Shown one piece after another: positions 6,001 through 33,000 of a stretch of 50,942 nucleotides of DNA (positions within the stretch are counted from its first letter, which is position 1; each line of letters starts with the position of its first letter). Where the stretch lies: NCBI GenBank assembly GCA_004298075.1, contig SCRK01000054.1, forward strand, positions 1 through 50,942. Reading direction: 5' to 3'. The DNA is from a bacterium. Its GTDB lineage: Bacteria > Omnitrophota > Gorgyraeia > Gygaellales > Profunditerraquicolaceae. The notes beneath the pieces are model-generated. The model was not told the origin of the DNA. It did no database searches and saw only the letters and a list, made by a program, of their open reading frames with translations. The translations under genes and the position numbers were made by a program.

Positions 6001-9000
6001 CCGGCTCCGAAGCAGAGGCGAAGCAGAGGCGTCAGCAGATACTTGATTGGTTATGGCCGGGCAAAATGGCGCTGGCAGAGGATCATCAGGAATTCGGGGC
6101 GGATCTGCACAAGGATATTCTTTTGAAGACTTTTCAGTCTCCTGCTTCAATGGTTGTTATTTTGATGTCGGACCTCCTTAATCAGGGCGAAGAGGGGCGC
6201 ATTAATAACCCTGATCCTAAATCAAGCCATCCCAATTGGCGCGCGCGCATGCCCAAAGAGTGCACTATAGATGACTTGCTGGGGGCGGTTCGGAAGAAAG
6301 CCGTTACGGAGAAGGCGCAAGTTGTGCCGGATCTTTTGAATTGGCTGCTGGAAGAATCCGGGCGCAAAACCGCTGCTTCTTCCGTATGCGTAACCTCCGG
6401 CATTTCCTCTTGCGGGCAATCTCCTGCCGGCTGCCTTTTGAATACGCGCTTATCTATCACAAATTCAGCAGCGCACTCACGTCTAATGATCAATCCGCAG
6501 AATGAACTTTCAATCTTGTTCAACGCCTCAAGCGGGATCGTGCGCGCGGGGCCGGTAACTCCAAACTTGTTCACTTCCGGCGCATTAGCCTTGGCAAGTT
6601 CCCCTCAAAGCGATCCAGAGCCAAAGAGCGATGACGAGCAGTTAGGGCTGGTTGCTATCTTCAGCGCCTTAACCGAAGGCTGCGTATATGATCACAGCGC
6701 AGGCCAATTTACCGTAAGCCCCGAGAGAATAATACGGAATTTGGAGAGCGCCGAAAAGAGCCTAACTGCGCTTAATATCCCCTCAACAATATATGGGCAT
6801 GGATTTTCCACCCAGCCTCCAATTATTTCCCGCCTGAACCATGGATTAGACTATCACGGCATCCATAACATGATCCAGGAAGACAAGATCGTTAATATCA
6901 GCGTTAAAGATTATCACATGCTGAAGAAATTATTGCCATTTTTAGGGGAGCTAAAAAATGAAGAGGCACAGTTTGGGGCGGGCAACTTAGATATCCGGGG
7001 CATTACCTCTTATTTTGAAGCGAAAGCGTTAGGGCGCTGTTTATATGACGGAGGCAACCTGGAATCATTTATGAAATTGCTGGAAAAAGGAGAAAAGCCC
7101 ATACTTGGAGATTACCTTAAAGGGATTTTACCTGATTTTGGCGTGAGGCCGGAGGATGGTTTTGAGATCATTGACGCGCGCGAGATAGATAAAAGGCATA
7201 TCTTCCTGACCGTCCTCCTCCACGGCCGTACCGTAATTTCCCTGACTATGGGGTATCCGACCAAATACGCCGACTACGAGTATGAAGGAAGGACCATCCG
7301 GCAGAGGGAAGGAGCCGGCAATGTTTTTTCACCGGATTTCAACGAAGAAGGAAGGCCTGTTCTTTGTAAAGGAATAGACAGGGAGCGCCTCAAGGAGAGC
7401 ATTAAGCGTATGCATGAAAAAGGGAAAAAGGCGCTCTTTGATTTCGTTGCCTGGCCGTCCATAGCTTTTCTCAATGATGATACTTACGTTTATTGCGTTC
7501 ATCATCCTGTTGACCGGAATATGCCGGATGAGCGTTTACTTAGCGAGAGAGGATACAAAGGAGTAAGATTGCATTTAACTAACGGCGACAAAGTCTACGT
7601 GCAAAGAAGAGGAGAGGGCGAGTCGCAGGATCAGTTAGACCCGAATTTTGATCTGCGCACACCTGTCAACGGAAAATTGGAGCCGCCGGGGTATTTCTGG
7701 CAGCGTTTCTATACCCGTTGGATACTCTACCTGATCAAGGAATTCGGTTTTGACGGGGCAAGAGTTGACCTGGCCCATAACTTGAACCACGGCGGAGACT
7801 ACATCATGTTCCAAAGCATACTTTTTAATGTTAAACGCCATGCCTGGATAGATCTTAGAAAGAAGGTTTTCTTTATTCTCGAGACCTATAGGCCTGAAGA
7901 CCGCGATATGTTTGAGCGTTGGAACGGAGAATATTGGTCAAGAAGAGGAGAGCCGTGGCTTAATCAGCTTAAAGCTGATTTTGTGGCGATGAAGGATAAA
8001 ATACGCCATCACTTCCTGACCTTGCAGGACCTTTTCTCGAACATTTTCGGGAAGGAGCTGGGGATTTTAAAGGAGCTGGGAGAAGGCCTTATAATGGGCC
8101 AGGACCGTGAATTTCAGGCATTCCAGCACGATTTCACGGCAACATTAATGGCCTCCGGAACTACCGGGGAGCGCTTACGCAAGCTTGCGGATGGCCAACA
8201 GGATGAGGTTCCATATACCTTTATCCGTTCATACTTTAAGGGCGTCTACGATAATATTGAAAGGCGGGAGTCGGTGGTAAACTTGATGAATTCGCTGGAA
8301 TGGTTCATCAACAACCGCCATAAACTGGTGCTCGTGATCGCTAATTACGATGAACGTTCTTTGGTGGATCTGATACCGGATGAAGCTGTACGTCTGGAAT
8401 TCATTGAGGTGTTCCTCTATTTCGTAAAAGCAGGTTACGATGTGCTTATTAGCTTCCGGGATATTAAAGAGCAGGTAGGGGAGAATATCCCTGTTCCCGG
8501 AGGCAAGGGCACGGTAATAAACGGAGATGCCGATTACATCGTTTGGGAAACGCATCGTCATCCCCCGCAGGCCGAATTCATAAGAAATCTTGAGGTTCTT
8601 CTGGGGGATCAATTGTCCGAGGCGCGTTTTTATCAAAAGATGACGGATACGGAAGATATCAGGATAGATGAAGTTTCCCTGGATAGAGGTCAGAATAAGC
8701 TTGTATTCAGAAATGAGCATAAGGATATCAGGGTATTTGATCTCGCTTCGATGATGGAGCGTCTCAAGGCCTCGTCTTCTATTACGGATCCATTAGGGTT
8801 GCGGCAGGGTGAAATTATAATAACTGGTTACCTCTCCGTGGCTGGTGGGGACCAGTTCCCTGTCGCAGCCCTTTCAAAAGGTTCATCTTCTGCTTTGCTG
8901 TCCCTAAGAAAGGTAATACTCGTAACAGCCATTCTCGGCAGCATACTTTTATTCGGTCCTTTACCTGCACTGACCGGTTTGTGCCTGGCGGTCCATATCA

Positions 9001-12000
9001 GCCTATCTCGCAGTTTGCTTAGGTCCAATAAAGAATTCAGGGAAAATAGGCCGCAAAAGCCCGTGAAATTAGCAATAAAGTACGCGGGCAGGAAAATACT
9101 TAGGAATGTCAGGATTAATTTTACAGAATTATCTAAGAAGATCAAGCAGCATCTTGCCGCAGAATCAGAAATCGGGGCAAGCATGAGCGTCATTCAGGAA
9201 AAGTTAAATAAATTCCAGGAGCTAAAAGAAAGCTTAATCAATTCGATATTAAATGAGCACATGGCGACAAAAACGGTTTGTCTTGCTTTATTGAAAAAAG
9301 TCCAGGAAGAATGCCCTCTCACTGAAATAGGCTCTGAAGGCGTCTCTTCGGCCGCCTCCAGTCCTTTAGCTACGGTATACCCGGCTTTTACCACCGTAAG
9401 AAATAGCGAGAGGGGGATGCCGGTTGTAAAAATCACATTGAGAAATACCGACAAGAGAGGGAGTCTGCTTCTACCGGACGATATAAAAGTACTTAGTGAC
9501 ACGGCTTATCCAATCAATGAATTAAACGATATCCGCATGCGGATAATAGATACTTTTGATGCTGTTTGGCCGCTTTCGGAGAATCGCCCCATTATGGAGC
9601 GCAGCTTCATTATCCATCCTTGTCTTCCCATACGTGGTCACCGCGATCATACCTATTTGTGCGTCAGCACTAAGAATAACTTTTACTTGGCTCACGCTCT
9701 TTTCAGGCAAACCCTGCCTATTGAATTTAAGCAGGTTGTTTTGAAGTATAGAGGCTGGCGTACCTTGACCTTTGAAATACCTTTAGAGATATTAGAAAGT
9801 CACCGCTTAACTCTATGCCAAAGAGAAAAATACGGGATAATCTCGGAAGATGACTGGATTGCGGAATTACTGGAATACGTGAGGTTTAAGATATTTGTTA
9901 TCGGCGAGGAATTCACCCGTTCTCCATTCACCCGGTTCAGCGCTTCGCCGCTGGAGGGAGGGATGCAGAATTACTTTGTGAAAACCGCGGGAAGAAAAGG
10001 GAAAACAGGGCCATCAGCTTATTCTTCTTTTTCTGCGAGATACGATTATGGAGCGTTGGTAATGGGATTGTATAGATTTGAAAGGATAAATGGGGGCAGC
10101 CCAATTCAGGATGGGAGAAATTATCCGGAGCTGCGCGCTAATATCGCCAGAATCTTAGGGAAATCCGGATATCCGGCCCTGGCGGATATATTTTTTGATA
10201 CTTCCTCCCCGCTTTCAGCAAAAATGGCAATCCAGCAAACTCATGTAAAGAAATTGCAAGTTTGGCAGTCTAAATATGAAGATTGGAATGAAGTCGCGGA
10301 AATTGTCCCGGATTTAGTCAAGTTCAACGGCATTAATGGTTATGGGCGTTATCTAACGGAGGATGAGATAAATGCTTTGGCACAAAAAGTGCAGAACGGT
10401 AATAAAGCTGCAAGAGAGGTGCTCATTCTGACAAGGCGTGCCCAGGTTGCCGGCGCAGTAGAGAGATTTATTTTTGAGAATCCCTGTTTTAGTCGCGATG
10501 ACAAAGATGACCTTATGCAAATTGCAACATTCGGCAATGGAAAAGGCGTTGGTGGTCTTGCCCGGGCAGTAGAGCTTTTTGACCCGGATAACGGAGGGCT
10601 TTTTTCTGCATACGCTAAAATGTGGATTAAGTCGGCCTTATCACAAGGATTGCGCAGGCGGTTAAAGAACAAAGTGCGGCCTTTTGATTACGATCCGAAT
10701 GGATCCCGGGAAGGCGGCCCGGTTAACCGCATATCCGAAACAAAATGTTTATTTGAGGATGCATTGGAAGCTGATCTATCTGCGCATTTGCAGGAAGCTA
10801 TCCGGTATTTATCATGGACAATCTCGGCCAGAGATAAGGATATTTTAATTAGCCACATTAATGACGAGTCTAACCCCGCTATAGGTAAACGTCATAAAAT
10901 AAGCAATGAGAGGGTCCGGCAGATATTAGATAGGACGACGCAACAGCTTAAGGAGATGGTCCGCTCTGGCAAATACGCATTGATAAAGGCATTAGTTGGC
11001 ACGAAGGTGAGTGTTCCGGCAGTAAGCAAGCAATTTAATATCCCAGCTACTACACTTTATGTCCGGATTAAGGCCCATGGCATATCCCTGCCGGAATTGC
11101 GCAAACAGCTCATTTTAGAGTTAGGAAAGAATACGGGATTCGAAGCGGATGAAATGGCCGCGGAGCTTGGCATAACCAAAGAGTCTCTCTTTGACAGAAT
11201 GAAAAAACTGGGTATTCCGTGGCTAGAGGCAAAACATGCTTACGAAAAAGAATGGTTAATGCCGGCTTTAGCCAGTTGCGGAGGCAATATCTCTGAAGCG
11301 GCCAGGAAGCTTGTTATTGCCGAACAATGCTTACGTAAAAAGTTAGAGCCGTATAAATCAGAGCTAAAGGAAATGCGGCGCCAGGCTCTATTGGAAAGAA
11401 GAGTGGCAAGAAGAATGACAATCCTGCATGCCCTGGATGAAGCTGATTACAGCGTACCGCGTGCCGCGGCATTATTAAGCATGAGTACCGACACTCTATA
11501 TCAGAACATAAGCGATTTGGGCGTTGATTTAAATGCAGGAAAGAAAGCACGCGATAAGAAATGGCAGGATGAGCAGAGAGCAGAAATAACCGCCGCCTTG
11601 GAAGCAGCCGGATATGATATTTCCAAAGCAGCGAGGATGCTCGTGGTAAATCTTAACACCTTGCGTTGGCGAATAAAGAGCCATAAGATTGACGTGCAAA
11701 CTGGAAGGCAATCATATCTAAAAAGAATAAAGGCGGAAGAGCGGGCGCGTATTACAGAAGCTCTCATCTTTTGCGGTAACAGGGTAAGCCTTGTTTCCCG
11801 GTTCCTCAAGATCTCCAAAGATATTTTATATGATAGGATAAAAATTTACGGTATCGATATAAGCAATAAAGAACTCCTCAGACAGATTAACCATATTTTT
11901 GTTTCTAGCTTGTCTTTGCCGCCTTTAGTTGAGGACAATGCTATTTTCCCGGTGGTCGATTCGCCCAGTACAAACCTTTTTAAGCTCATAAACGAAACCC

Positions 12001-15000
12001 CCGAGTTCCTTTATCCGGGCTGTAGCGCTTCGCCCGTAACTTTAATAGGAGGAAAATGGATAAGTCAAAATAGCAATGAGATATTAAATATCGCGATCCA
12101 AGAAGATTCTGCGCCGGAATTGGTCATGGATAAGAGCGATAGCATGGAAAGAATAGGGAAGGTTGATTTCCACATTATTAATAAACTGGATATTCAAGTA
12201 ATAAATATCGAAATTGAGGATGTATTCTTAGGCAGAAAGCATTCATATGATCTTCTTGATTGCCTATTTTTATATTATTATCTGCAGGGGGCGTTTTCTT
12301 TTGAAGTTGTGAAAGTTCTTAATCCCCTTATCGCAAGAATGTTAATTAATATATATGGCTTTGATGCATATTTTAAGGACCGCAGAGTTGCTGCGGTTAT
12401 TGGAGAGAGCAAGGAGGGGGGGAAGGCCCAGATATATTTTGAGGATTGGATGGGTGAAGATATTCTGGAGAGGAATCTTTATGTAGGAGACATATTATTG
12501 GAATTAGAGGTTGTACAAAATACTCCCGTGCCCGGGACTAAGATCTATATAGGAGACCGCTATCATTTAAGGGACGAAGTACTCTTTAAGTCCAGGATGC
12601 AGCAGGTTATACGCAGGTGGACTGGCATCAGCGATTTTATGGTAAAAGGACCAATCGGCTCTTCCCCGCTTGCCTCCGCGCAAGGAGAGAGAAGGAGCGC
12701 AGAAGGGCTCCTGCCCAGTCTTTCCATTAAAAATGGCGCCAGGGTAGTAAAATGGGATAATTTCTACGAACTCGTATGCGCTTCGCCGGTAGTTTCTCCT
12801 TTCCGTAATTTTCTTTCTCATGCCCAAAGGACAAGAGCTTTGTTCAGGTCTATATGGTCAGCCAATGCGCCTCCGCTGATTATCGCCGCTATTTTATCAG
12901 TGTTTCTTTCTGCTCCCGCCTCCGCCAATTATTCTAAAACTTCCACAATCCCTTCAAGAGAGGAGTTAATCGAGAAGATAAGACAAAATGATGCCGATAA
13001 GATACGCCTTCTTGATGTCCTCATCAAATCCGGTTTAACCAGTGAATTAGCAGAAGCCATAATTGACCTTAAGATAAGCTGGCAGCAGGCATATGAGCTT
13101 GGCTGCAAGTTGCGGGATAATTACAAAAAAGGCATTTTAATGCTTACCGGTGGTAGGCTTCCGGAAGCAAAGGAGGTATTCTTAAAGATACTGGGCATGG
13201 AGAAAAGAATCGCGCCCGTCCATTATTCTTTGGGGATAATAGAGCTCGCCTTGAATAATCCCGAAGAGACCAGGCGCTACGCGGAAACAGCGATAAAATT
13301 GGAGCCGGGACATCCGCTAGGATATGAGTTGTTAGGGTATGCCTACATCGCTTTGGCCGTTAAAAAAGAGCAAGAAGGCGCAAGCTTGAAAGAAATTATC
13401 TTCTGTTATCGGCAGGGTATTCATAATCTAGAAAAGGAGATAAGATTGTTCCCTTCATCGGGGTATGGTGTTAAAGACCTGATAGGGAAAGTACGGGAGG
13501 TTATCCAGGGGTTGGAGGGCACATCTCCTGGGAGGCAACCGCTAAAACATGGCCCTGTTTTGAAAGAGAATAAACCGCAAGACAGCCCTGACAATAACCG
13601 CCGTAGCGGCTCCTCGCCTATTTCAGTAGGATTTCTGACAATCCCTGATTATGCGGATATTTTAGACACTATTAAGGCGATAGGAATGGCGACGAGGCAT
13701 TATAACGAGAGACAGTATCGTGCTATTAGGCGCTTTTCGGTTCCGGAAGGAAAAGTCGTTTGCGCTTCGCCGTTGGCATACGGGAAATATCCCGGTATCC
13801 CCTTCTACCCGGTTGGGATACCCGTTGATCTGGATGATTATTTTAAACTGCACTATCCTCGCGGTTTCAGTGTAAAAACTAAGGTAGCTTTTGTCAGAAT
13901 AAAAGATGCGCTCAACCTATTCTTGCCGGATGATTTTAGCGCAATATTAGAAGGAAAAATCAACCATATCCTGAAGATCGCAAAAGGGTATTATCCTAAT
14001 GGTCCTTCTCGCGATGGGCTGGTATTTAAAACCCCCGGTATAAGCTTAACCCGTATGAAATCCATGGTTATTACGACTGATATAGAGTCAAATTTTAGCG
14101 AAAGTTATTTAGAAGGCTGCAGTTTAATCATTCGCCTGGTCCGTCAGACAGAGTTGCTCCTTGATATAATCCAGGCTGGCTCGCAAGAAGACGGCATAAT
14201 AGTGCGCGCAGGATCCCCCCTGGGGAATACTCGTGATGATTTATTATTTGCTCTGGATGGCTTGCAAAAAGAGATCGGCCTTGAAATATCTCTTCTGGTT
14301 CTGCGTGTAGGTCTATGGTTAGGCCTGCCGATAGAGGAATTTTCCGCCAATGCTGAATCTCTGGTTAAGGGGATGAAAAGTTGGGATAGCCATAAGAAGA
14401 TCGCCATATTTTGGGCTTTAAGGGATTCCGCGAACAGGCTCCCCAGAGATGATGAAAAATCCTTACCCCTGACAATAGCAAAACCTTTGTTTGATTTAAG
14501 CGAAAATGAACTAAGCGCATTGAATATGGCATTGGCAAATTCCGGTTGGAAACTCCACAGGATCGGCGAGGGTTCGGTAGAGTTGATGCCGGCGGCTATA
14601 TTTGTCGTAGAGGACCTGATCAAGAAAGAGCTTGGCGAATATGAATACGAGAGGTTATTCGGGATTTTAGGCAGGTTCAATGACTTCAGGGAGAAGTTAC
14701 TAAGATTAGCCGCTATTGGCAGGGAACTTGCTGGCAGCTTAGAGCCGGAGAGGCAATTCTCTTCTTCCTCTATCGGGGTATCTACCTTTGAGCAGCCGGA
14801 TTTTGAAGAGTTATTTTTTAACCACTCTAATCTCGAGCGGCTTTTTAATTCCGGAGAGAGGCAAGTTATATATTTGGCGGAAAGAGGCTGGGGTATAGGC
14901 GAGATTACGTCAATAGGCGGGGCTTTACCGAAGATAAGGTTCCCAAGCACAAAGCCCGCAGAGAGGGAGTTCAATAGAGCCGAGATATTAAGGTCCGGTC

Positions 15001-21000: not shown

Positions 21001-24000
21001 ATGAAGAGATGGTTATAAGAACCAAAGAATTTTCAGGATACATTAAAGAGGAATTAAAGCGGAGGGAGATATTTAAACAGGGAAGAAACCGGGAATATTT
21101 GCTTTTAGAGCCCTATCAGGAAATTATTAATGGGTTTAAAACCCCTGCCCTTATTTATCAGGAATTATATGTATCCGTCTCGCCAGAAAGAATTTCCGGA
21201 GCGGGGAGAACAAGTTCTCCGGTTAACCGCCTTAATTTCCCGGACATAGAAGTTGCTGTAATGCCTTCGCAGTGCGATGAAAGTCTGGCGAGAGTTTTGG
21301 CGGACTCAATTGTACCTTCAAAATTGGGCCTGGTTATCAACGGCGCGTCTTTTGAACCCCAGCGAATAACTGCTATACAGATAGCTTCAGTTCGCTCTGA
21401 TTTCAATGTTTTATCCGCGAAGAAATATGACGGTTTGGAAGCATGGCTTATTAACCTTTATCCTAAAGAGGTAACAATCAATCTCGCCAGGCCTTTTAAG
21501 CAGCAGGCGATGATATACCGCAACCAGGCCTTCGCGGTTTACAGAATAACTTTAAAATCCGGTGATTTGACTTTAGGTCATTTCTCTATCGCGGCAAAAT
21601 TAGACACAAAAGATAAATTCAGGATCCCCGCGATATTAGCGGAGGTTGCCGCTAACGGTTCTTCTCCGTTGGGGGCCTGCGTGGCTGGGCGTGGATTAGA
21701 ATATTTGCTTTATAATGGAGAGATAAGCGGCGCTAAGCAAAACTGGTTGCTGCCGACTTTAAGTATATTCACCAGTGGATATTTTCATGCCAACGTTTTG
21801 AATGATATAGGGTTAATCGCCGCTGGAAAGACGGCCTATCCGGCATATTCCGGCAGGGCTCCGCCTTCCAGCAACGTATCCTCTCCGCTCAAGAAAAGCC
21901 CGGATCCCGCGACCAAGAAAAAAGGGCCTTCTCGTGTCGCTTCGTTCAAATCTCTATGTCAGGACCCTTTATCCACGGCCGTTGTTATAGTTTTTGTAGT
22001 TCTGGTTGCTTTATTCGCAAACGCTATTTTTTCCTTGATGATCAACTCCTGTCTTGGGCCTCGCTATGCCATATGGTTCTTCACAACGGTATGTATTTTA
22101 GTTATTTCTGCCGTTCTATTTGCTTTGGTCTTTCCTTATCTTGTTTCTCTGCGCACAGCTTTCATTACGGGAATCATTATAGGGGCTGCTTTTGGCTTTT
22201 TAGGTAAATGCGTTAGCGAATTTTGCCTTGAGTCCCCTATTACTTCCAGCCAGGCTTTGATTTGGTTTTCCCTTACCATAATCGCAAGCGGCTATCTGCA
22301 TTGGCGCCTCGCGCGCAAGGATGGCTTTTCCAAACCAGGCAAGGAGGATAAAAATGATGCCGGCTCCAGAGAGAATAAAGCTTCCTCCCCAGTACAGAAA
22401 AGCATTTTAATGAAAGATAAATATCCCCGGATTGAAGCGGTAGCCAGTTTCCCTGAATCGTTTGCGAAGGCAGTAAAACAAAATCATGGCGAAATAATCT
22501 ATGCTTCACATCTAAATTTTACGCGTTTCAATCCCGATTTTCTTTTGTCTTTTTATTATGGGCACCTTGATGAGCGGCTGGTAGATTTTATAGAGCTTAA
22601 ATATGGCGCCTGGCTCCGTGAACAAATACTGACTTTGCATGAGGCCTTCTTTAAAGGAGTCATTAGCTGCCTGCAAGGGTATCCCGGGTTACTTTTCGCC
22701 GGCATAGAAAAAGATAGGATTGGCAAGACGGTAAAGCTGTTAAGCGCGTACAATACACCGGCTATTATTGTTCCTACCAGGAATGAAGGCGCGGAACCCG
22801 TTTTTGAAATGCCCAAAAATAGCGTTATTCCCGAGTATTTTGATAATTTCTGGTTGACCGGATGGGGGAAGCTTACGCGCATATTCGGGCATCTGGGGGT
22901 AAAAAATGCATTGGTAGCGGGAGAATTCAATTTTCCCGATACCCTCGCTTGCGTAGAAGCTTCGCGCTCTCACTTGAACAGTTTTTTTAGGGCAAGAATA
23001 CTTCCGGAATATACCTTTCCGGGAGTAAAATCGCACATTATTGGCGAATATGTGAGGCAATGCGCAAAGAAGTCTCTTTATCTGCTCGAGCAGCAAAGTG
23101 TTTTTACTTCCTCTCCGTTAAACCCAGGTAATTTCAATTGCAGGGATCTGTTGCCGGATTTAAATAGCCTGGGACATTTATCATGTGTTAACTTTAACAA
23201 GAAGATAACTCTTTGTCTGATTGTGATGGTGGGAATAATAATCTATCTAATATATCCGCTGGTATCAGTAAAAGGGAATGTAATGGGAGGGGTAGAAATT
23301 GTAGAAAAATCTCCAAAAGAAGATCATCCGGAAATCGGTACGGCCGGAGCTGCGCAGTTGGACAAATCCGGCTTCCTTGGGGAGCTTAAAAAAGAGATAA
23401 AAGCTACCTGTTCAAATGGTAGTTTATTTCTTGCAGCATTGATCACGATGGCGGGAGCATTGTTTAGCAAATGGTTTTTTGACGCAAGATACGCTATTTA
23501 CTCGGTTTTTATAATCTTAGGAGCAGGAATTGTCGCCGTCTTTTTTAATGTCGTGGAATCTTTGTTGTCGCAAGACAAATCCAAAAATAATAACCCCATA
23601 AGCTCCGATAAAAACTCGATAAATAGATCTTCAAGCCCCGCTTTCGTTACGGAAGCAAGCTCCTTCCATAGCCTTCGGCCGAGGGTTAAGGGTAACGCCG
23701 CTGAATTTAAGACCACGGATTTACGCAGGGCTTTTATGGAAAATGGCTTGCAGATCATCGGCCATTTAAGTTCAGAGGGAGCAAGAAGCCGTATCTACAA
23801 GGCTGTTGAGCTATCCAGCGGGATCCCCGTGGTAGCGCGTCTGCCTAAAAACGGTCAACCTCTCAATAATAGTTTTGCCCAGCGGTGGATCGATAAACTG
23901 CAGGGGAGGACGCACCCGGGCATTATACAGATATATAAGGTTGATAGTATTATTTTGCCTGGAAAAGGAGACACGGAATATCAGGTCACAGAGTATGTGG

Positions 24001-27000
24001 AGGGGAAGCCTCTTTATAAGGTGGTGCGTTTTAGAAAGAAGCTTGCTTTGCCGTCTTTGTTTGTGTTTGAGACGGCTTACCAGGTATTAACGGCCATGGC
24101 GTTTCTTTACGCTAACGGTCTTCTCCATGCGGATATTAAATTAGAGAACATATTAATTACCGAACATCGAAAGGTGAAGTTAATAGATCCCTGGTTTAAT
24201 ACGGGAGAAGCTGATTTAGAGGTCCTGAAATCAAAGTGGGAAGAGAGGGCATGTTTTGAGAATCTTGTGTGGTGGCTTTTGTATGAATTCAGGCTAAGGG
24301 AATTCCTGGGGTCGTTTGAGCCGGTTATTTCCGCGCTTATGGAAGTGGGGCCTCATAATCGGCATGAGATAGGCAAGCTGGAATCGGAGGTTTTAAGGCA
24401 TATAAATCTTTTGAAAAACCACGGCATTAAGATTAATAATTTTGACCCCAATTCTTTAATTAACCCCATATATTCATGTTGTGCCTCTCCGCTTAGCGCA
24501 GAAAATCTTATATTATCTAGAGAAGCAAGGGATATTTTGGGCGCGTATCTCGATGAATGCATAGATACCTGTCGTAAATGTGTGCCGGGGAATTCCCGTA
24601 AAGTTATCATAAAGGAGAATAAAATACTTAAAATGGTGATGAGAAGGTCGATGGATAGATCCGTATGTTATTTCGCAGGCAGATATCCGGACTCTAATTC
24701 ACCAGAAGATTATATTAAAAGATATATAAGGGAGGACATTTACTTTAGCTCCATGATAGTAAATATGCTTGATTTCCTGGAAGAATATATTTCCACAACC
24801 TGGTTGTTCCGCTCCGCGGAAGGGTGGATGGATGAATTAAAGGAATATTTTGATGGGTTAATTGTGAAGAGAGAAAACGCGAATGATTTCCGTATCGATG
24901 TGTATTCGTTGGGAGGTTCTTATGGGGACGAGGCCTATAGCATTGCTCTCGTTTTATATGAGTGCCTCGACAGGTATGCGAAAACGCGGCAAAGAGAGGA
25001 TTCGTGGATCAAGAAATGGCAGGTGGGGATAGAAGTGCTTGACCCTAATCTGTTTGCGCTCCACCGCTTCATGGAGCGAAAAAATATTTTACTCGCGAAA
25101 AGCAGCAAATTAGGCATGTTGGGAGATTATCTTGGATATGCGAAAGCAAGAGAGGTCTTTAGCCGGATTAAGAGCTGGATGCAAGCCAGCGCTGTCTATT
25201 TTTCTCCCGGGCTATTTTCTTCGGGAGATGAGGTGAAAAAACTTCTTACCGTATCCAATACGCGCGTAGATGTTATCTTTTCTCTCAACGTTTTGCCTTA
25301 TATCGGCTATCCGGCGATGCAGGATTTATCGCATAGCGTGAAAGAGGGCATAATACTTAGCTTAAAAGGTAACCCAGATTCGGCGCGCTGGGTAACTAAT
25401 TATCAGCTTGACGGACCGGCGCAAATATTCAGGGTCGCGCAGGAAGAAGTGACGCGTCTGCCTAATAAAGCAGGACAGCTAAGACTAAGTGCCTCACCGC
25501 TAAGGTCCGGCATATTTTCTTCTTTCTCAATGGATATCCTTCAGCCGGTATGGCGTCTGACTAATCTCGTGATTGTTTCTTCTCTGTTATTTCTTAATCC
25601 CTCCTACGCTTCTATTCTTCAGAGGCATCCCGTTAATTTAGATGGGGAAAGGACCATCAAGATGGCCATAGGGGTAAGCGAAGGAGTTTGTTTAGAACCG
25701 TTATTAAGAAAAATAAATGTTCCTGCGGATATTGCCAGGGCGATCAGCCGGCTGCCGGCAATAACTCCGGCTAAGGCCATGATCATGTGGAATGTCATTC
25801 TTTTGAAGCCCCAGAGGGTTATTAGCGGCAGCTTGCCGTTTGAGCCGGGAGGCTCCTCTAGCCCGATTTACGCAGGCAAGGATATCTTTGATATTTATTC
25901 TCTGATGCTTATCAAGAGCGATCCCTTCGCTGTCTACCCGGCGATACAAGACCCCGGTCTCTATTTTCATATAGGGCCTATTCTCGCATATCCGAAAGAG
26001 GACAAAAAAGAAGCGGCTCAATTGAAACCTGCTTACAATCCCCCGAGGAAAAGAGTCCCCTGGACGGCTAAATATAGAGAATGGGGGATAATTAAGGAGA
26101 TTATCCCCGACCTGGTCAAGCGCGACGGGTTTATTAGGGAGAAAAGATTTTTAGATGATTATGAAAATCTTATGTTATTCAGAGAAACGCAAAAAGGCAA
26201 CGCGGCTGCCAGAGAAACCTTGATTATGGCATATCTTCCTCTGGTCTACGGGAGGGTAAAAAGGTTCATCGGACTTCATCCTTACTTAATTAATGACCGG
26301 GACGATCTGGTGCAGGTCGGCATTTACGGGAACCATATGATCACGGGAGGGTTTGCCAGGGCAGTGGAGCTTTTTGAGGCAAGAATAGGCTGGATGGGCT
26401 TCTCACACTATGCCACGCGATGGATTGACGCAGCCATGTTGGCGGAGAAAAAGAAGAAAGATAGAATACTCAGCAGGGAATCCCATTTTGATCTTGATCC
26501 GGAGGAGCCTAATAGAAGGGAACCGCTTGAGTTAATACCTGACGAGAATGATTTATTCGAGAAGATAGAAGAGGCAGATGCCTGGTCCGTATTTTTTGAG
26601 GCACTTGAGTATCTCAAGTCAATGATCTCGGAGAGGGACGGCGATATGCTGGTAAGCAGGCTTGCCGAAGAAAGCCTGGTAAGCGTCGGGAAACGTTACG
26701 GAGTATCGCATACTCGTGTTAAGCAAATTGTGGACCAATTAAAAGTGAGGTTAGGTGAAATAATTTATTCAGGCGAGTTCCGCAATGGCCCGGATGCCCT
26801 TCTTAGAGTTTCCAGTAACCTGACTGCCGCTTCTCCCCTTGGAGGTCCAATAGAATGGTACATTCTCCGCAATGAAATACTTTCGGAACCGGTCATATTC
26901 GGCAATAAATTTATACGCAACCATGTCAACCCCTTATCAAGAGAACTGACCGTTGCCGCGGGCTGGGCAGGCACGGATATCGCGAATCTCTGGCTGGCAA

Positions 27001-30000
27001 CCCATTTCTCCACAGCCATTATGATTAACGATTTCAAGATAAGATCCAACAGGCTGGGATTCCATCTTAATAAATGGGAAGAGTTTGACGGCCAATCGGA
27101 TTATTTTGTCCATAAATACGAGCTCGGATATAACTATACGGAGGATTTCTATCCAGACCGCCGCAGGAATATGGAGCCGGAATTCTTTATTTTACAGGAG
27201 CTCCGGGGGATGGGCATCGGCAAGGACCAGATAAGGATTTATACGGATAGCCGGAAAAGGACCGTATTATCTTTCAAGCCGCTTGGTATACAGGAGGAGA
27301 GCAAAATCGTATTTGTTAAAGATAATATTCTTTCTCCGGGAGATAAGCTGAATAATGAATTGTCCGGCAAGCTGAATGTCTACTACCAAAAAGCCTGCGA
27401 AGATTTCGGTTCATGCTATGAGGAATATCTCCCTTCTATCCTAAAATGGATTAAGCCGGGGGGGTTTCTTATTTTCAATCCCTACACCCAGTCAGGCAGC
27501 TATACCATCATCTATGATTTATTAACGGGTTTTAATCGGAGAGGCAATACGAAGCTAGCCCTCTCTTCATCGCAAGATCCCGGCATAGTAGAACAGGCTG
27601 GATACCTGGAGATGAAAACCACCGGCCACGGTTGGGCTATGGAGATCTGGCAGAAATCTTTCTCTGCTTCGCCCCTGCAATCGCAGATGCGGCAGATAAT
27701 CGGTTATAATAAAAAGGGTTGTAGAACGGAAACTTTCTCTTATCAGCCGGGAGGCTCTTTGGGGCGCAACGACAGGTTGCAGGTGAGAGGGGAAACCGCG
27801 CAGTGGTTGGGAGCCAGGGCGCATAATACGGTATTTCAGCATCCCGGGGAACCCTGGGCTATCCGTCTTGGGAGAAGTATTTGCTCCAGAGCGCAAGATG
27901 CTTTATTGTTAGCCGGCCGGGCGTATTATGGTTTTGCCGACCTCTTTAATCGGGGGGTATCCGTACCCAGGCCTGTAGGCATAGCGGTTGCGCAGTGCGA
28001 TATCGGTTACTATCCCTGTTGTTTTGTGTTGAGAGTAGAAGGCAGGAATTTATCGGAGATCATGGAGAAACGTCCTCTCAAAGAGAAGGAGAGGGTGGAG
28101 ATGCTCAATTTAACCTGCCAGCTTATACAGAGCGGGCGGTTTATTCCGGACTTAGACGCGACGCAAGTTATGTCCGGGAAGACCTCTCTGGATGATAGGG
28201 GTGAAAGGATATTCCTGACAGATCCTGACGAGGCAAAGCCATACGACCTGGATATAGCGTTTGTCCTTGAGCATTATAGCCGTAAGCTTACGGGTTTATT
28301 TAATATCCCTGTCTCCCCCCATGGGATTTATAAATTTTATGCCAAAAGATACCTTTTCCCGCTGGCCGTCGCTAAAGGGGTATCCTTTGGACGGGGGGTT
28401 TCTTCTCCGCTAAGCGACCGGGGGTCGATCACGATTAGTAACGATACCTTAGTGAAGAAAATAGGGGCGCGTTATAATTTACCCTGTTGCGCGACAAAAG
28501 ATGCCCAGTTAGAAGATATTAAAAACCACTCTTTTGGTTACAATTTGAATATTCTGCTGGATGTTCTTTATATGATTATTCGCAGAAATTCTTCATCCCC
28601 GATATATTCATACAAAAGCGGTCAGCCTGCGTCGTCCAACATAGAAAGTAAATATATCCTGTCCGCCCGGGCCTGGCTTTTGCTAAAAACAAAGAAGGAG
28701 CTTAAGTGCAGCGTACCGCAGCTTTTTATTTATTCGGAATTAGTCTTTGACGAAATTATTTTAACCAACCCCTATAACCTTCCCGGGCATTTGTTAAACT
28801 ACATAGATACCGTAAGAGAGATGTTCATGCTTCTATACAAGCGCGTGAACGGGGTGCTTGATAGCGATATTGACTCATCCGCAAGCCTGGAGCGGGCAAA
28901 GGGCATCATCCTTATGCTGGAAGACATGCTGACATCCTTGAAATCATTATTGGGTAAATGCCTGAAATGCCGGGAAATTAACAGTTCCGAGCTTAAACGG
29001 AAAATAGAAAGTATCGCCAGCACGGTCAACGATATCGGATGTGTATTTAAGCCATTTTTTGAAAAAAAGACATACATCCAGGTAGATGCCAATATTATTA
29101 TCCAGGAGGTGCTGGATTTGCTGGATTATTACGGTCAAAGATGCTTCGTAAAGACTGAATTTGACCCCGACCTTCCGCTTATTACAGTTATTCCCGCTGA
29201 TTTATATCTGATCTTCTCTGCCATTATCATCAATGCCATGGAGGCATCCGCAATAAAGGGAGATCCGGAAATAACGGTAGAGACGCGTTTTATCGCTCCT
29301 GCCGGTTGCATACAGGTACTTATCAAAGATAACGGCAGCGGCATAGATACGAAATATTTTTCCAAGATATTTGAGCCGCTTTTTACTACCAAGCCGGGCA
29401 GCCTTGGCGTGGGGCTCTCTATAGCTAAAGAAATAGCGCGCAGCTACGGAGGAATGTTAGCGATTTATACAAAAGCGAATAGCGGCACTACTGTGATTGT
29501 TACTTTGCCCGTTGAATTCTCCGCCTCGCCGCTAGAGGCAGAAAAGATCGTTTGCCTGCTCAGGGGAGGTCTTCATCAGGTAAAAGACCCCAGGAATTAT
29601 AAGGAATGGCAAAGGGCCGGATATGGACCGTTAGTCCGCAGGTCTTCAGAAATTCTTGGCGGATGGCATAATGTGGTAAATAAGCTGGGCTTTAAGCCTT
29701 TGACGAGGGAGGAAATCGCGCAGAATAGAATAATATGGACAAAGGAAGAAATAATCCATAGATTATTAAACCCTCCCGTTGAAGTAAGGAATACCTGGAA
29801 TTACAGGCAATGGGAAAAATCCGGTTATTCGCGAATGGTCAGAAGGGCTTCAGAGATATTCGGGGGATGGGAAAATGTATTGAAAGAAATAATGATCCTT
29901 CGTCTCTTTCATTCTCATCGAAAGATAAGGAATCCAATGGACCGCCGGACATGGATAAGAATAGGCCATTTCGAGATGGCCAAACTGGCATTATCCCTGT

Positions 30001-33000
30001 TCGGGTGCTGGGATAATCTACTTAAAGAAGTAATTATCCGCCATCTTAAGAATCCCCCTTCAGAAGTTACCGACCCCAGGAACTCAAAAGAGTGGGAGAG
30101 GGCCGGTTACTGGCAAATGCTGCATTACACAAGGAAGCTTTTAGGAGGTTGGATCAATGCGGTTAAGGCTGCCGGCTATGAGCCTATAGAAAGGAAGGAA
30201 ATAGACAAAAAGAGGACCAAATGGACTCCGGAGGCAATCGATAATCTGCTTTTAAACCCTCCTTTCGATATTGCAGACCCGCGTAATTCACAGGTATGGA
30301 TGGATAAGGGGTATTCGCAACCGGTACACAGGCTCATAGCTACTTATGGCAGTTGGGCCAACGCGCTTAATAAATTCGGCTATATGGCTATTAGGAGACA
30401 ACATTCTCCCTGGCAGGCAAGATATTCGGACTGGAAAAAGGTGGCAGCAATAATACCGGGAGTAGTTTCTGAAAGCGGAATTTTAAGCACGAATGGGTAC
30501 CGAAAATTGAACGATAATGAAATAGCGCGTTTGATACAGGAAGTACGGGATGGCAATGAAGCCGCGAGAGAAGCTTTGATAGTGATAGTAGGGCTTCGTA
30601 TCGTTAAAAGCGTTGCCTGGAGTTTCCGCCGCAGCCCGTTTTTAGGGGTAGATGACCTGGTTCAGGCGGGTATTTATGGAAGCGGCAGAGGGGTGGGAGG
30701 ATTTGCCCGCGCGGCGGAAATCTTTGACCCAAACAGAGAGGGAGGATGTAAATTTACCAGCTTTGCGAGAATTTGGGCTAAGTGGGCCATCATAGGCGAA
30801 TTAAAAAAGGACAGAAGGCCGCAAACTTTTTATCTGGATGACCCTATTAGAGGCACGCTTACCTTTTTCGATATATTACCGGCAGAGCAGGACTTATTTG
30901 CCGATGCAACAGGAATTCTTGAGTTGACCGAATCAATGGAGTCTTTGTCTTTGCTGTCTTCTGCGCCTTCCGTAATCAGTTCTTCCCCGCTGGGTTTGCC
31001 CGCCGAAGGTAACCCATCCCCATGCACTCTGTCTATTAAAGAAACAAAAATATGGCTTGATCAACAATTTAATAGAAGCCCGTCTTTCAACGCAGCAATA
31101 TCTTCCAGCAGCCTTCTGCGCGCTCCTCCACCGGCACTTGCCTTAGTATTTATGCTGTTTTCTAACCTTCCCGCTTTGGCTAGCCTGCCGGCCTCAGCTT
31201 ATTCATATCAATCCATCCTAAAAGAAATAAACGCGACCCTCGAAAATCAGTATCTTAAAGACAAGGTCGCTTTGTTATTGACCGGGATTTTTGGGGTTCC
31301 AGAGGATATCGCCAGGTCAATAGCCTCTTTGGATGGCATGAATACCGCAAGAGCAGCCGGTATTTGGCAGAAAATAAGAGAGGATTATTTGGCGGCGGAG
31401 GACTTCTTTAAAAAAGGCGATTTTGACGAAGCCGTAGATTCCTACTTATCTGTATTGATGAAAGAACCGGATCTCCCCTATATATCTTTTCGCATAGCGC
31501 AGGCATTTTCCGCCGGTGTTGAAGCGGGATGGGGCCAGGAGAAGGGCGGAAAGATTCGCCTTTACTATAATAGCCTTATTTACGCGGATATGGCGGTTAG
31601 CAGGGGTTATCAGGAGTTTGACGTTTATTTGCTGAGGGCGGACATCTTGCTCCGTTTAAGCAGGTTAGAAAAAGACAAATCACAGTTGCTGGAAGCGAAA
31701 GATAACCTTGAGAAAGCGCTCCAGCTAAATCCCGCGTTAAGGCCTCAGGTTGAAAAAAGCCTTGAGTATATTAACCACAAACAACGGGAAATAAGCGCTT
31801 CTTTGCCCGGTAGCTCGCCGCTCAAGAATGAAATGAGGTGGAGTAGCGTAAAAAGCCTGTATTTACCGGCTGACTGGCAGGTGCATACAAACAGGATCGT
31901 TCTGCAGTCCCGGGGTTCAGAGGCGCAGATTACAGAGTTGATTTCAAATATTCCGCCCGACATTCAAGTTGCCGTGGTTGTCAGTCGGCAGTTCCTTGAA
32001 CATCATTCTTCCGCGTCATTCCAAGCCTTGCTCCGGGATGATCCTCGTTCCGAGATCATCGCGGTAAACGGGAATATAGGTATATTCGCGCGGGACAACT
32101 ATCTTTTTACCCTTTCCGAAGAGGGGCCTGTTCTGCTTACTCCCTGCTACGACCTTGAAAGGAATATCCCGGACCAGGATGGCGAACAATGGGTTGCCGG
32201 TTCTTTGGGCATAGAGGTCAAGAAAGCTGATTTTTATTTTGAGGGAGGGGATGTTCTTCCTGCCGGAGAGAATATCTTCGTGGGGGAGAAGGTGATCGCG
32301 CGCAATCGGGAGTATTTTGCTTTGACTGAAAAGCAAGCCCTGGAGAGGATAGCGAAATGGTTCCCTTATCAGGAGGTCGTGCTCTTCCCGTCAATGAGAA
32401 AGATAAGGGGATATTTCCATTTGAATACTTCGGTGACCTTCCTTCCCCGTAAACGGGCGGTCTTAGGTGATGTTAAGCTGGGCTTACGCCAGATAGCCGC
32501 GTTGAGCAGGCGCCAGATTATGCGCCTGGATCCTCTATTTGAGAGCCTATGGACAAAAAGGTGCTGGCTGGCGGGAGGAATAGCCAATTCCGTAAGAAAC
32601 CGTAAAATATACGCGCAAAGGGAAGAGAAATTAACCTCGTTGGGCTACTCCGTTATTCCCGTCCCATGGTATCCTCCACATGAATTTATCCACACAGTCC
32701 CTAATTACAATAATATAGTCTTCCTTGGGGAGGATCTGGCCCTGCTGCCGGTATTCGGGGTTCCCGCCGACGCGCAGGCGACGAGGGCCTATAGAGATAA
32801 TGATATTGATACTATAGCGTTAAACTGGTCGGCTTCGGATTATCAGGGCAGAAACGGTTATTGGCGCTGCTCCATGAATATTGGCGGTATTAATGAGCCG
32901 GCGGTATTATCTTTGCTACCAGGCATGGCCTTTATGCCGGAAGTTATCATCGGCAGGATAAAGGAAAGCGGGCCAGCTTCGCGCAAACCCGTCACATGCG

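Follow-up and report, generated by a model that had tools for sequence, protein, structure and literature searches.

A giant open reading frame and its sigma unit

The stretch of DNA considered here, called the window throughout, comprises 50,942 nucleotides (nt) of contig SCRK01000054.1 (positions 1 to 50,942), from an Omnitrophota genome (GCA_004298075.1). It carries one giant open reading frame (ORF), and the element in question is a sigma-70-family protein, unit B, encoded within that ORF at 25869-26828 on the plus strand. Frame +3 is open from nt 3 to nt 50942 (16,980 codons, 0 stops), and each of the other five frames has between 586 and 1369 stops. The giant ORF runs off the window at both ends and reads as about 50 protein-sized units (plus strand, 3-50942), set apart from each other by a short recurring motif that we call the junction. 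A listing of ORFs within the window holds only three short ones, all on the minus strand, and the minus strand beneath unit B offers nothing beyond short ORFs of at most 105 amino acids (aa).

Pfam families follow one another along the chain: 4-alpha-glucanotransferase, HEAT, Fis-type helix-turn-helix (HTH), sigma-70 regions, HAD hydrolase, HD, protein kinase, CheR-like, three HATPase_c, NUDIX, radical SAM, NAD epimerase, 3-dehydroquinate synthase, PIG-L, and nucleotidyltransferase. A single uninterrupted ORF over mutually unrelated enzyme and regulator domains is one mark to be expected of a polyprotein, and it is present here. Giant ORFs of more than 20 kb, with a characteristic set of domains, have been published for Omnitrophota, and this one, at least 50.9 kb long, agrees with them: the published list includes HEAT_2, HATPase_c, Radical_SAM, TPR, NUDIX, and HAD_2, all found here too. 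The literature also reports C39 and S8 domains in giant ORFs of this phylum. The nearest retrievable loci are L001, from an Omnitrophota metagenome-assembled genome, and MDD4980953.1, a protein of 'Candidatus Omnitrophica'. L001 (20.7 kb) and a further locus, L003 (12.7 kb), are stop-free pieces of giant ORFs with ASPL-type junctions and one sigma unit in each. An assembly artefact is unlikely, as like architecture occurs in three independent assemblies (L001, L003, and P0009).

An earlier note on this DNA, made from the sequence alone, had marked off a block running from an SSPI motif to an ASPL motif and holding one sigma-70-family protein and little else. The description is accurate on both counts. 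The motifs lie at 25857-25868 and 26829-26840, 324 codons apart from motif start to motif start, with 320 aa between them, of which about 64 at the N-terminus and 19 at the C-terminus have no assignment. The parts of unit B are as follows, where A and C are two related modules of the same ORF and confidence (pLDDT, the predicted local distance difference test) refers to a model made by AlphaFold2 (AF2).

25857..25868, plus strand: upstream junction SSPI (TCT AGC CCG ATT), whose AGC-coded Ser indicates constraint at the level of the amino acid
25869..26060, plus strand: 64-aa N-terminus; no Pfam or NCBIfam match; the last 16 residues, which were modeled, have pLDDT <50
26061..26147, plus strand: family-specific N-terminal extension WTAKYREWGIIKEIIPDLVKRDGFIREKR; W, Y, W, I, and P invariant in A, B, and C; predicted helix
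26148..26462, plus strand: sigma regions 1.2 to 2.4 (sigma2); TIGR02937 match; profile alignment with region 2 of SigB, RpoS, and SigA in the PDB; pLDDT about 90; Foldseek E 1.5e-5
26325..26345, plus strand: seven-residue insertion YGNHMIT in region 2.2; a gap in SigB and RpoS (HMMER); family-wide; short hairpin in the model
26463..26552, plus strand: acidic linker, region 3.2-like, with no sigma3 domain; no Sigma70_r3 match; model residues 159-179 have pLDDT <50
26553..26771, plus strand: sigma regions 4.1 and 4.2 (sigma4 HTH); TIGR02937 to model position 161 of 165; alignment with region 4 of RpoS; pLDDT 83-96
26772..26828, plus strand: 19-aa C-terminal tail; model residues 260-272 have pLDDT <50
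26829..26840, plus strand: downstream junction ASPL, 8 aa past the end of the sigma profile match

Unit B as a sigma factor

On the sigma-70 superfamily model TIGR02937, whose cut-off is 42.9 bits, unit B scores 46.7; the match takes in aa 114-295 of the unit and positions 2-161 of the 165 in the model. A profile made from modules A, B, and C matches SigB, RpoS, and SigA in the PDB, with E-values down to 1.6e-8. Ordinary sigma factors match the family profile from about positions 42-47 (GN.AARE.LI) onward. The most conserved stretch of the family is GG(L/F)ARAVELFDP, the second half of region 2.2, which is the core-binding motif. Regions 2.3 (FS.YA..WI) and 4.2 (VS..RV.QI) are both present in B, and B keeps every invariant and nearly invariant position of the family. 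Compared with SigB and RpoS, there is a 5-residue insertion ahead of region 2.2 and the 7-residue insertion inside it (DDLVQVGIYGNHMITGGFARAVELFE versus DLIQEGNLGLIRAMEKFD). In the acidic linker, SLD.P is a consensus of the family; the resemblance of this linker to region 3.2 of sigma70 is one that we presume.

The AF2 model, which took as input a 16-sequence family alignment (replacing a 3-sequence run too weak for sigma4, pLDDT 59), folds sigma2 with pLDDT around 90 and sigma4 with 83-96, leaving the linker and both termini disordered. When the model was compared with the PDB by Foldseek, there were 54 matches at E <= 0.001 (best 1.5e-5), and among the best 50, 48 were sigma chains in RNA polymerase complexes. 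Scores for overall superposition (TM-scores) are low, 0.2-0.3, the two domains being oriented differently in the free model. The earlier note had raised the prospect that the modules would prove to lack core-binding determinants once modeled. The model points the other way, with sigma2 and sigma4 folding confidently and the region 2.2 motif standing out as the most conserved.

In placing B within the superfamily, region 2, the region 4 HTH, and a fold like that of holoenzyme sigmas are all found. The sigma3 domain (regions 3.0/3.1) of groups 1-3 is not: Sigma70_r3 gives no match at E <= 1 in A, B, or C, and about 30-45 poorly ordered residues lie between sigma2 and sigma4. The count of domains agrees with group 4, the extracytoplasmic function (ECF) sigmas, yet region 1.2 is present, and apart from TIGR02937, all NCBIfam and PDB matches are to sigmas of groups 1-3 (RpoS, SigB, SigA, SigK, FliA). 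Judged by sequence, then, the architecture of sigma2, finger-like linker, and sigma4 is ECF-like in its number of domains and nearest to groups 1-3 in its residues.

Sigmas of groups 2 and 3 (RpoS, SigB, SigF/G/K, FliA) are the best matches of unit B in sequence and in fold, sharing with it GN.AAR..LI, GGLARAVELFDP (versus GLIRAVEKFD), FS.YA..WI, and S..RV.QI. Unlike them, B has no sigma3, has the 5- and 7-residue insertions around region 2.2, and has a W..KY.DW..IIP.LV helix in front; its family often stands behind homing-endonuclease-type repeats, and B itself is inside an ORF of more than 50 kb. By sequence and predicted fold, unit B is an intact alternative sigma factor. It is a sigma-70-family factor of a new subfamily, carried in a discrete, junction-bounded cassette of an Omnitrophota-type giant ORF.

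Paralogous modules in the same ORF

The ORF had been said to contain three sigma modules, paralogous to one another, duplicated within the ORF, and sharing an N-terminal extension. That they are paralogues is borne out by pairwise alignment: A is 39% identical to B over 241 aa (E 7e-50), C is 36% identical to B over 196 aa (E 2e-24), and C is 40% identical to A over 150 aa (E 2e-28). When the window was searched with a hidden Markov model of the three, no fourth module came up. The two units concerned are laid out as follows.

10203..10994, plus strand: SSPL and paralogue A, a complete sigma module (extension, sigma2, sigma4); TIGR02937 46.6 bits; 39% to B; orthologue in L003
10995..12038, plus strand: rest of unit A, a Fis-type HTH array and then ASPV; HTH_8 with 87.6 bits in 3 stretches; HTH_23, HTH_28, and HTH_30; kept in L003
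29523..30395, plus strand: first part of unit C, ASPL and about five repeats of the type associated with homing endonucleases; HNH_repeat 24 bits against a cut-off of 26; repeats read directly
30396..30992, plus strand: paralogue C, the extension and sigma2 only, ended at the start of region 4 by SSPL; from profile, alignments, and direct reading

Not all three are full modules. A (10215-10994) and B have both sigma2 and sigma4, but C (30396-30980) stops at the start of region 4, and the next junction coincides with its end; since the module is ended there, C is not a full sigma factor. On TIGR02937, A is above the cut-off (46.6 bits) and C below it (18.9 bits). Unit A also matches the SigK subfamily model, with an E-value of 1.5e-7.

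The supposed extension consisted of two motifs, W..(K/R)Y.(D/E)W...(I/V)(I/V)P and GN.AARE.LI, both invariant in A, B, and C. The first is indeed family-specific (W..KY.DW..IIP.LV), but the second is canonical region 1.2/2.1, matched by ordinary sigmas. What is left as an extension proper, W..KY.DW..V..IIP.LV, is about 29 residues long, is kept in embedded and in free-standing relatives, and is unmatched by ordinary sigma factors. The idea that it might be half of a homing-endonuclease repeat was rejected, as neither A nor B has a match to HNH_repeat at E <= 1.

For A and B, an origin by duplication inside the ORF is plausible: a neighbor-joining tree makes sisters of them, as it does of the module pairs in three other long proteins (P0001, P0002, and P0004). 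The branches of this tree are long and poorly resolved, and the tree was used for sister pairs alone; C remains unplaced. Sister pairs of this kind fit duplication within lineages or within ORFs. The duplication is old, however: another genome (L003) contains an orthologue of A, 69% identical, and the split between A and B predates the divergence of the window from L003.

Relatives elsewhere

An exhaustive profile search gave 7 matches with E-values below 1e-30 and 65 below 1e-10. The best relatives are long proteins of 2,000 to 4,900 residues that carry the module mid-protein, often two or three modules each. Several of them have unit-delimiting motifs of their own: [AGS]SP[LV] in P0007 and P0009, R-x-S-A-S-G in P0002, P0006, and P0008, SSS[SP][LI] in P0017, and RFG[DN]SGGALEK in P0001. 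The differing Ser-rich boundary motifs suggest lineage-specific signals for joining or processing units. In unit A, P0002, and P0006, additional HTH domains accompany the sigma module within its unit, and homing-endonuclease-type repeats like those of unit C precede the module in P0005, P0013, P0015, P0007, L001, and L003.

Besides its modules in long and giant ORFs of Omnitrophota-type bacteria, the family has genes that stand alone among ordinary neighbors: P0026, of 647 aa, is on an NCBI contig of 50 kb, and P0012 has 519 aa. Free-standing or shorter relatives typically have repeats ahead of the extension. Because such genes exist, it is conceivable that the sigma units of the giant ORF may have originated in the capture of a free-standing sigma gene.

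Other searches returned less. A word-indexed protein search found no match with unit B and only ordinary sigma factors with the family alignment. A scan of metagenomes by N-terminal patterns found no relative, and one by region 2.2 patterns found L003.

Some of the long proteins have features in common besides the sigma module. P0002, P0006, P0008, P0014, P0019, and P0022 (1.2-4.9 kaa) end in a common conserved C-terminal module, containing ...NYLYLEG.(I/M/V)GLA... in P0002, P0006, P0019, and P0022 though not in P0008 or P0014. The same four begin with an N-terminal hydrophobic segment ending in AQDI(A/T)WA(Y/H)PD. These proteins appear to be complete, with the sigma modules in between.

Perhaps the sigma-fold modules do not serve the cell's own polymerase at all but are co-opted DNA- or protein-binding modules, or effectors that act on the RNA polymerase of a host or prey, as would suit the predatory lifestyle proposed for Omnitrophota. 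C has only sigma2, yet it is kept in frame behind repeats of a DNA-binding type; the insertion in region 2.2 is unusual and sigma3 is missing; and published proposals have giant proteins helping to attach to other cells and to prey on them. It is, however, hard to see why the signature residues of regions 2.2, 2.3, and 4.2 should then match those of working sigma factors, or why relatives should stand free in ordinary chromosomal contexts. There is also no secretion signal near the sigma units, and their neighbors are enzymes of a cytoplasmic type. We regard this explanation as improbable.

Junctions as the boundaries of units

The motif [AS]SP[ILV] occurs 50 times in the chain, where shuffled sequences lead one to expect 1.8 +/- 1.4 (maximum 9). 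The residue just before it (position -1) is S, G, A, or C in 42 of the 50, for a junction consensus of (S/G/A/C)(A/S)SP(L/V/I). A short conserved motif at module boundaries is another mark of a polyprotein, and the boundaries here are clean. Between motifs, the units are as long as ordinary bacterial proteins (median 273 aa, mean 321 aa), and the motifs leave every Pfam domain intact, each recognized domain falling within one unit. For example, HAD fills a unit of 229 aa, HATPase_c ends units of 306 and 282 aa, and radical SAM lies in one of 376 aa. As a separate observation, the 756-aa unit at 42348-44615 (aa 14116-14871) holds both an NAD epimerase and a 3-dehydroquinate synthase, each full, with no junction motif separating them.

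Junctions respect the sigma modules in particular: none lies inside any of 13 modules in 9 sequences. For B, C, L001, and P0009, 4-8 aa separate the end of the sigma profile from the downstream junction; in P0007, the junction and the last 5 match residues overlap. In unit B, the residues adjoining the junction are predicted to be disordered.

The units might instead have been hidden independent cistrons, each with its own start, but a Shine-Dalgarno sequence plus ATG follows 1 of 49 junctions, versus 2.3 at random in-frame positions, and this candidate was rejected. Four units do have a Met exactly three residues past the motif (junctions 9942, 10203, 27666, and 31812: EGGM, SAKM, QSQM, KNEM). 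Start codons of the past may have left them behind; with correction for multiple testing, four cases are not a significant number.

Junction DNA and the possible exchange of units

The junction is also conserved in its DNA. TCGCCGCTG occurs in the window 17 times, against 0.31 expected, always on the plus strand and 16 times in frame. The only copy out of frame, at 21817-21825, translates within GLIAAGK. The 12-mer GCCTCGCCGCTG, encoding ASPL, is exact in 12 of the last 17 motif matches, with copies at, e.g., 42207, 42336, 44616, 45387, 46245, 47061, 48345, 50490, and 50931; in the 3' third of the window, nearly every copy is exact. TCG, which accounts for 12% of the Ser codons in the ORF and is among the rarest of them, is nevertheless used at 27 of 54 junctions. 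Junctions in L001 have identical codons (TCG-CCG-CTG), though its modules are just 30-52% aa-identical to those of the window, and the junctions in L003 are likewise conserved as DNA, with aa identity under 40% outside the orthologue of unit A. Pausing of translation at rare codons is unconvincing as an explanation, since no Pro codon is commoner in the ORF than CCG.

At the same time, the peptide is constrained. AGY codons specify Ser at 4 junctions, and the junctions flanking unit B, which are among the older ones, keep SSPI and ASPL despite diverged codons. The junction seems to matter as peptide and as nucleic acid alike.

Unit A offers a view of what happens at junctions over time. Its orthologue in L003 is 69% identical over 601 residues (80.8% in nt), and by the method of Nei and Gojobori, the whole unit has dN 0.168 and dS 0.60, giving an omega of 0.28; for its parts, omega is 0.25 in the extension plus sigma2, 0.12 in sigma4, and 0.32 in the HTH array. 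Unit A is therefore under purifying selection. The similarity to L003 begins inside the upstream junction motif and finishes inside the downstream one (window 10204-12038 versus L003 5693-7715). The 1,000 residues upstream of unit A have no counterpart in L003 (best E 0.5), and downstream there is one distant unit weakly similar to L003, the immediate flanks being unrelated. Since they are unrelated even though dS within the unit is only 0.6, units are, on the strength of this comparison of sequences, gained, lost, or exchanged as blocks at junctions. The L003 copy of unit A keeps a 90-aa repeat that has been lost from the copy in the window.

All this could mean that the junction is mainly a matter of nucleic acid, a 12-nt in-frame microhomology by which modules are duplicated, deleted, swapped, or homogenized, with the sigma units as passengers; that a sigma fills one motif-to-motif unit would then tell of the evolution of the gene and not of any processing of the protein. 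The excess of TCGCCGCTG, the exact copies of GCCTCGCCGCTG, the preference for TCG, and the codons held in common with L001 are what it would lead one to expect. So are the ends of the homology block of A within junctions, next to unrelated flanks, the cutting of C exactly at a junction, and the duplication of sigma modules within several proteins. Yet it does not account for the constraint on the peptide, as seen in the AGY codons and in the motifs around B, nor for other lineages placing different peptide motifs (R-x-SASG, SSS[SP][LI]) at the same positions, and it leaves the working of the sigma unexplained. This is a possibility to be taken seriously, though we would sooner bet against it than for it, and it is compatible with release of the units.

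A harsher view would be that B is in decay: a sigma gene that was captured, does nothing at present, and is open merely because the whole ORF must be. Its Pfam scores are under the cut-offs, no close orthologue of B was found, and its 64 N-terminal residues match nothing. But decay would scarcely have spared all of the invariant and nearly invariant positions of the family or left a sequence that AF2 models confidently with both domains. Furthermore, the sister unit A, with its omega of 0.28, is much better conserved than its flanks. We consider this view very improbable.

Proposed release from the giant chain

The reading that we favor is that unit B is a functional alternative sigma factor made in a polyprotein-like precursor and then released. 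From the sequence evidence, we put its probability at roughly 0.45, somewhat short of even. The giant chain would be translated as one precursor, and the sigma unit would be freed by cleavage at or near both of its junctions. The freed sigma, of about 35 kDa, would then bind core RNA polymerase and direct a dedicated regulon, so that sigma would be supplied in step with the giant gene's expression. In this account, the cleavage and the protease behind it, the binding to core, and the promoters addressed are what we infer. The earlier note had argued from core binding for release or a non-canonical role, and the support gathered here is indirect, bearing on units that are discrete and could be released or exchanged.

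That the chain is made as one polypeptide follows from the lack of support for internal starts (the 1 Shine-Dalgarno sequence plus ATG in 49 junctions, versus 2.3). As to location, strong transmembrane (TM) candidates are found at aa 2965-2995, 7327-7404, and 7735-7850 of the chain, and B and C fall within a long stretch without convincing TM helices, amid enzymes of a cytoplasmic type, which would place both on the RNA polymerase side of the membrane. The neighbors of B and C are a Pkinase unit, a CheR-like unit, three units without a known family, a HATPase_c unit, and TPR; no anti-sigma or anti-anti-sigma partner was recognized among them. Two observations may be added on the topology of this part of the chain. 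Directly upstream of the kinase/CheR-like/sigma B region there is a cluster of the TM helices predicted most strongly (aa 7327-7404 and 7735-7850, nt ~21981-23550), and two further TM candidates fall inside the Ser/Thr kinase unit itself.

Release is favored by junctions that sit at the ends of domains, by the disordered flanks, by units the size of proteins, and by the existence of free-standing relatives. It is favored also because the docking of sigma on polymerase is sterically demanding as a general matter. On the polymerase, the docking sites of sigma2 and sigma4 are about 70 Angstrom from each other, and the linker has to thread through the enzyme. Furthermore, sigma precursors activated by proteolysis are well known (pro-sigmaE, pro-sigmaK, pro-BldN).

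Several considerations weigh against this reading. First, no peptidase family was recognized by domain searches of the 50.9-kb window, though the ORF extends past both of its ends. Second, sigma domains do exist in larger fusions, such as NCBIfam MzaA, so release is not obligatory. Third, the Pfam models Sigma70_r2 and Sigma70_r4 match below their cut-offs (18.1 and 20.5 bits for Sigma70_r2, against 24), the 7-residue insertion is in region 2.2, the main core-binding helix, and the residues of that region that we take to be equivalent to E407 are not conserved. Fourth, junction codons are conserved across genomes with only 30-58% aa identity, which may point to a role in DNA or RNA, e.g., in recombination, rather than to a protease site. 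Finally, protein, profile, and metagenome searches did not find a close orthologue of B, so that selection has been measured on A alone.

The first two of these considerations raise an alternative in which sigma works without being released, in a chain anchored to the membrane. The sigma might be kept inactive until regulated proteolysis, with the chain itself as the anti-sigma tether, or it might draw RNA polymerase or DNA to the giant protein. The TM candidates lie elsewhere in the same chain, fusion is evidently tolerated, since the modules of unit A, P0002, and P0006 share a unit with HTH domains, and the MzaA model is an example of a larger protein with a sigma domain. But thousands of flanking residues at both ends would, as a general matter, make docking on polymerase sterically hard, and there would be little reason for junctions to hug the ends of the domain or for relatives to stand free. 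A tethered sigma seems to us unlikely.

Release could also be combined with exchange of units. Giant ORFs of this lineage would then be cellular polyproteins composed of in-frame cassettes for complete proteins, working sigma factors among them, with the 12-nt junction serving both as the breakpoint for exchange and as the site of processing. We offer this broader proposal only tentatively and consider it rather doubtful. If it were true, part of the regulatory and metabolic proteome, even the choice of promoters, would come from one translation unit.

Comparison with known systems

Bacillus pro-sigmaE and pro-sigmaK and Streptomyces pro-BldN are made with 20-90 extra N-terminal residues, removed by known proteases. 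Unit B is like them in that a sigma is made with extra sequence that (here by proposal) must be removed before it can act. It differs from them in that thousands of residues flank it on both sides and in that its cleavage is only proposed.

The viral polyproteins of picornaviruses and potyviruses also come from one ORF that yields many functional proteins, with a short motif recurring at their boundaries. The ORF of the window is likewise single, encodes many proteins, and has a motif at the boundaries. Unlike the viral cases, it is a cellular gene, its junctions are conserved at the level of codons, it carries housekeeping-type enzymes and regulators, and no protease was identified in it.

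MzaA, from the MZA anti-phage system (NF041931), resembles units A and B (E 5.3e-5 and 1.3e-3) in having a sigma2 region within a much larger protein. The scores are far under the cut-off of 800 bits, so neither unit is a member, and proteins of the MzaA type have a few hundred residues, not tens of thousands.

The closest likeness is to the Omnitrophota giant ORFs ('Archaeovorins'), which exceed 20 kb and have the same list of domains; the relatives found here are also named Omnitrophota. Cleavage of these giant proteins into several products has already been suggested in the literature, and the points of cleavage are stated to be unknown (West-Roberts et al. 2023, bioRxiv 10.1101/2023.11.21.568195). 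Peptide data for giant proteins are sparse; for that of LiM, there are 381 short peptides, sequenced de novo. Neither sigma factors nor a junction or cleavage motif is mentioned in that paper, in Seymour et al. 2023 (PMC10066038), or in Nielsen & Lui 2026 (bioRxiv 10.64898/2026.06.07.730766), and the cassette-like blocks of homology seen here are not described in them. A full-text search of the literature for sigma factors in connection with giant proteins of this phylum brought up nothing but a paper on another matter, leaving the feature undescribed within the searchable literature.

A complete sigma under purifying selection, bounded by junctions and exchanged as a block between genomes, offers a concrete and testable way into the question of giant-protein cleavage. 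Should the sigma be released, these would be the first large cellular polyproteins to carry transcription factors, and software could divide giant proteins into their functional units at the junction motif. Should it stay in place, a sigma acting from inside more than 17,000 linked residues would be without precedent.

One observation concerns what follows sigma B in the chain. The unit directly after it (26841-27665, aa 8947-9221, 275 aa) has no match to any family. L001 has a counterpart to its first 150 residues, 52% identical, at aa 6763-6909, distant from the sigma unit of that locus.

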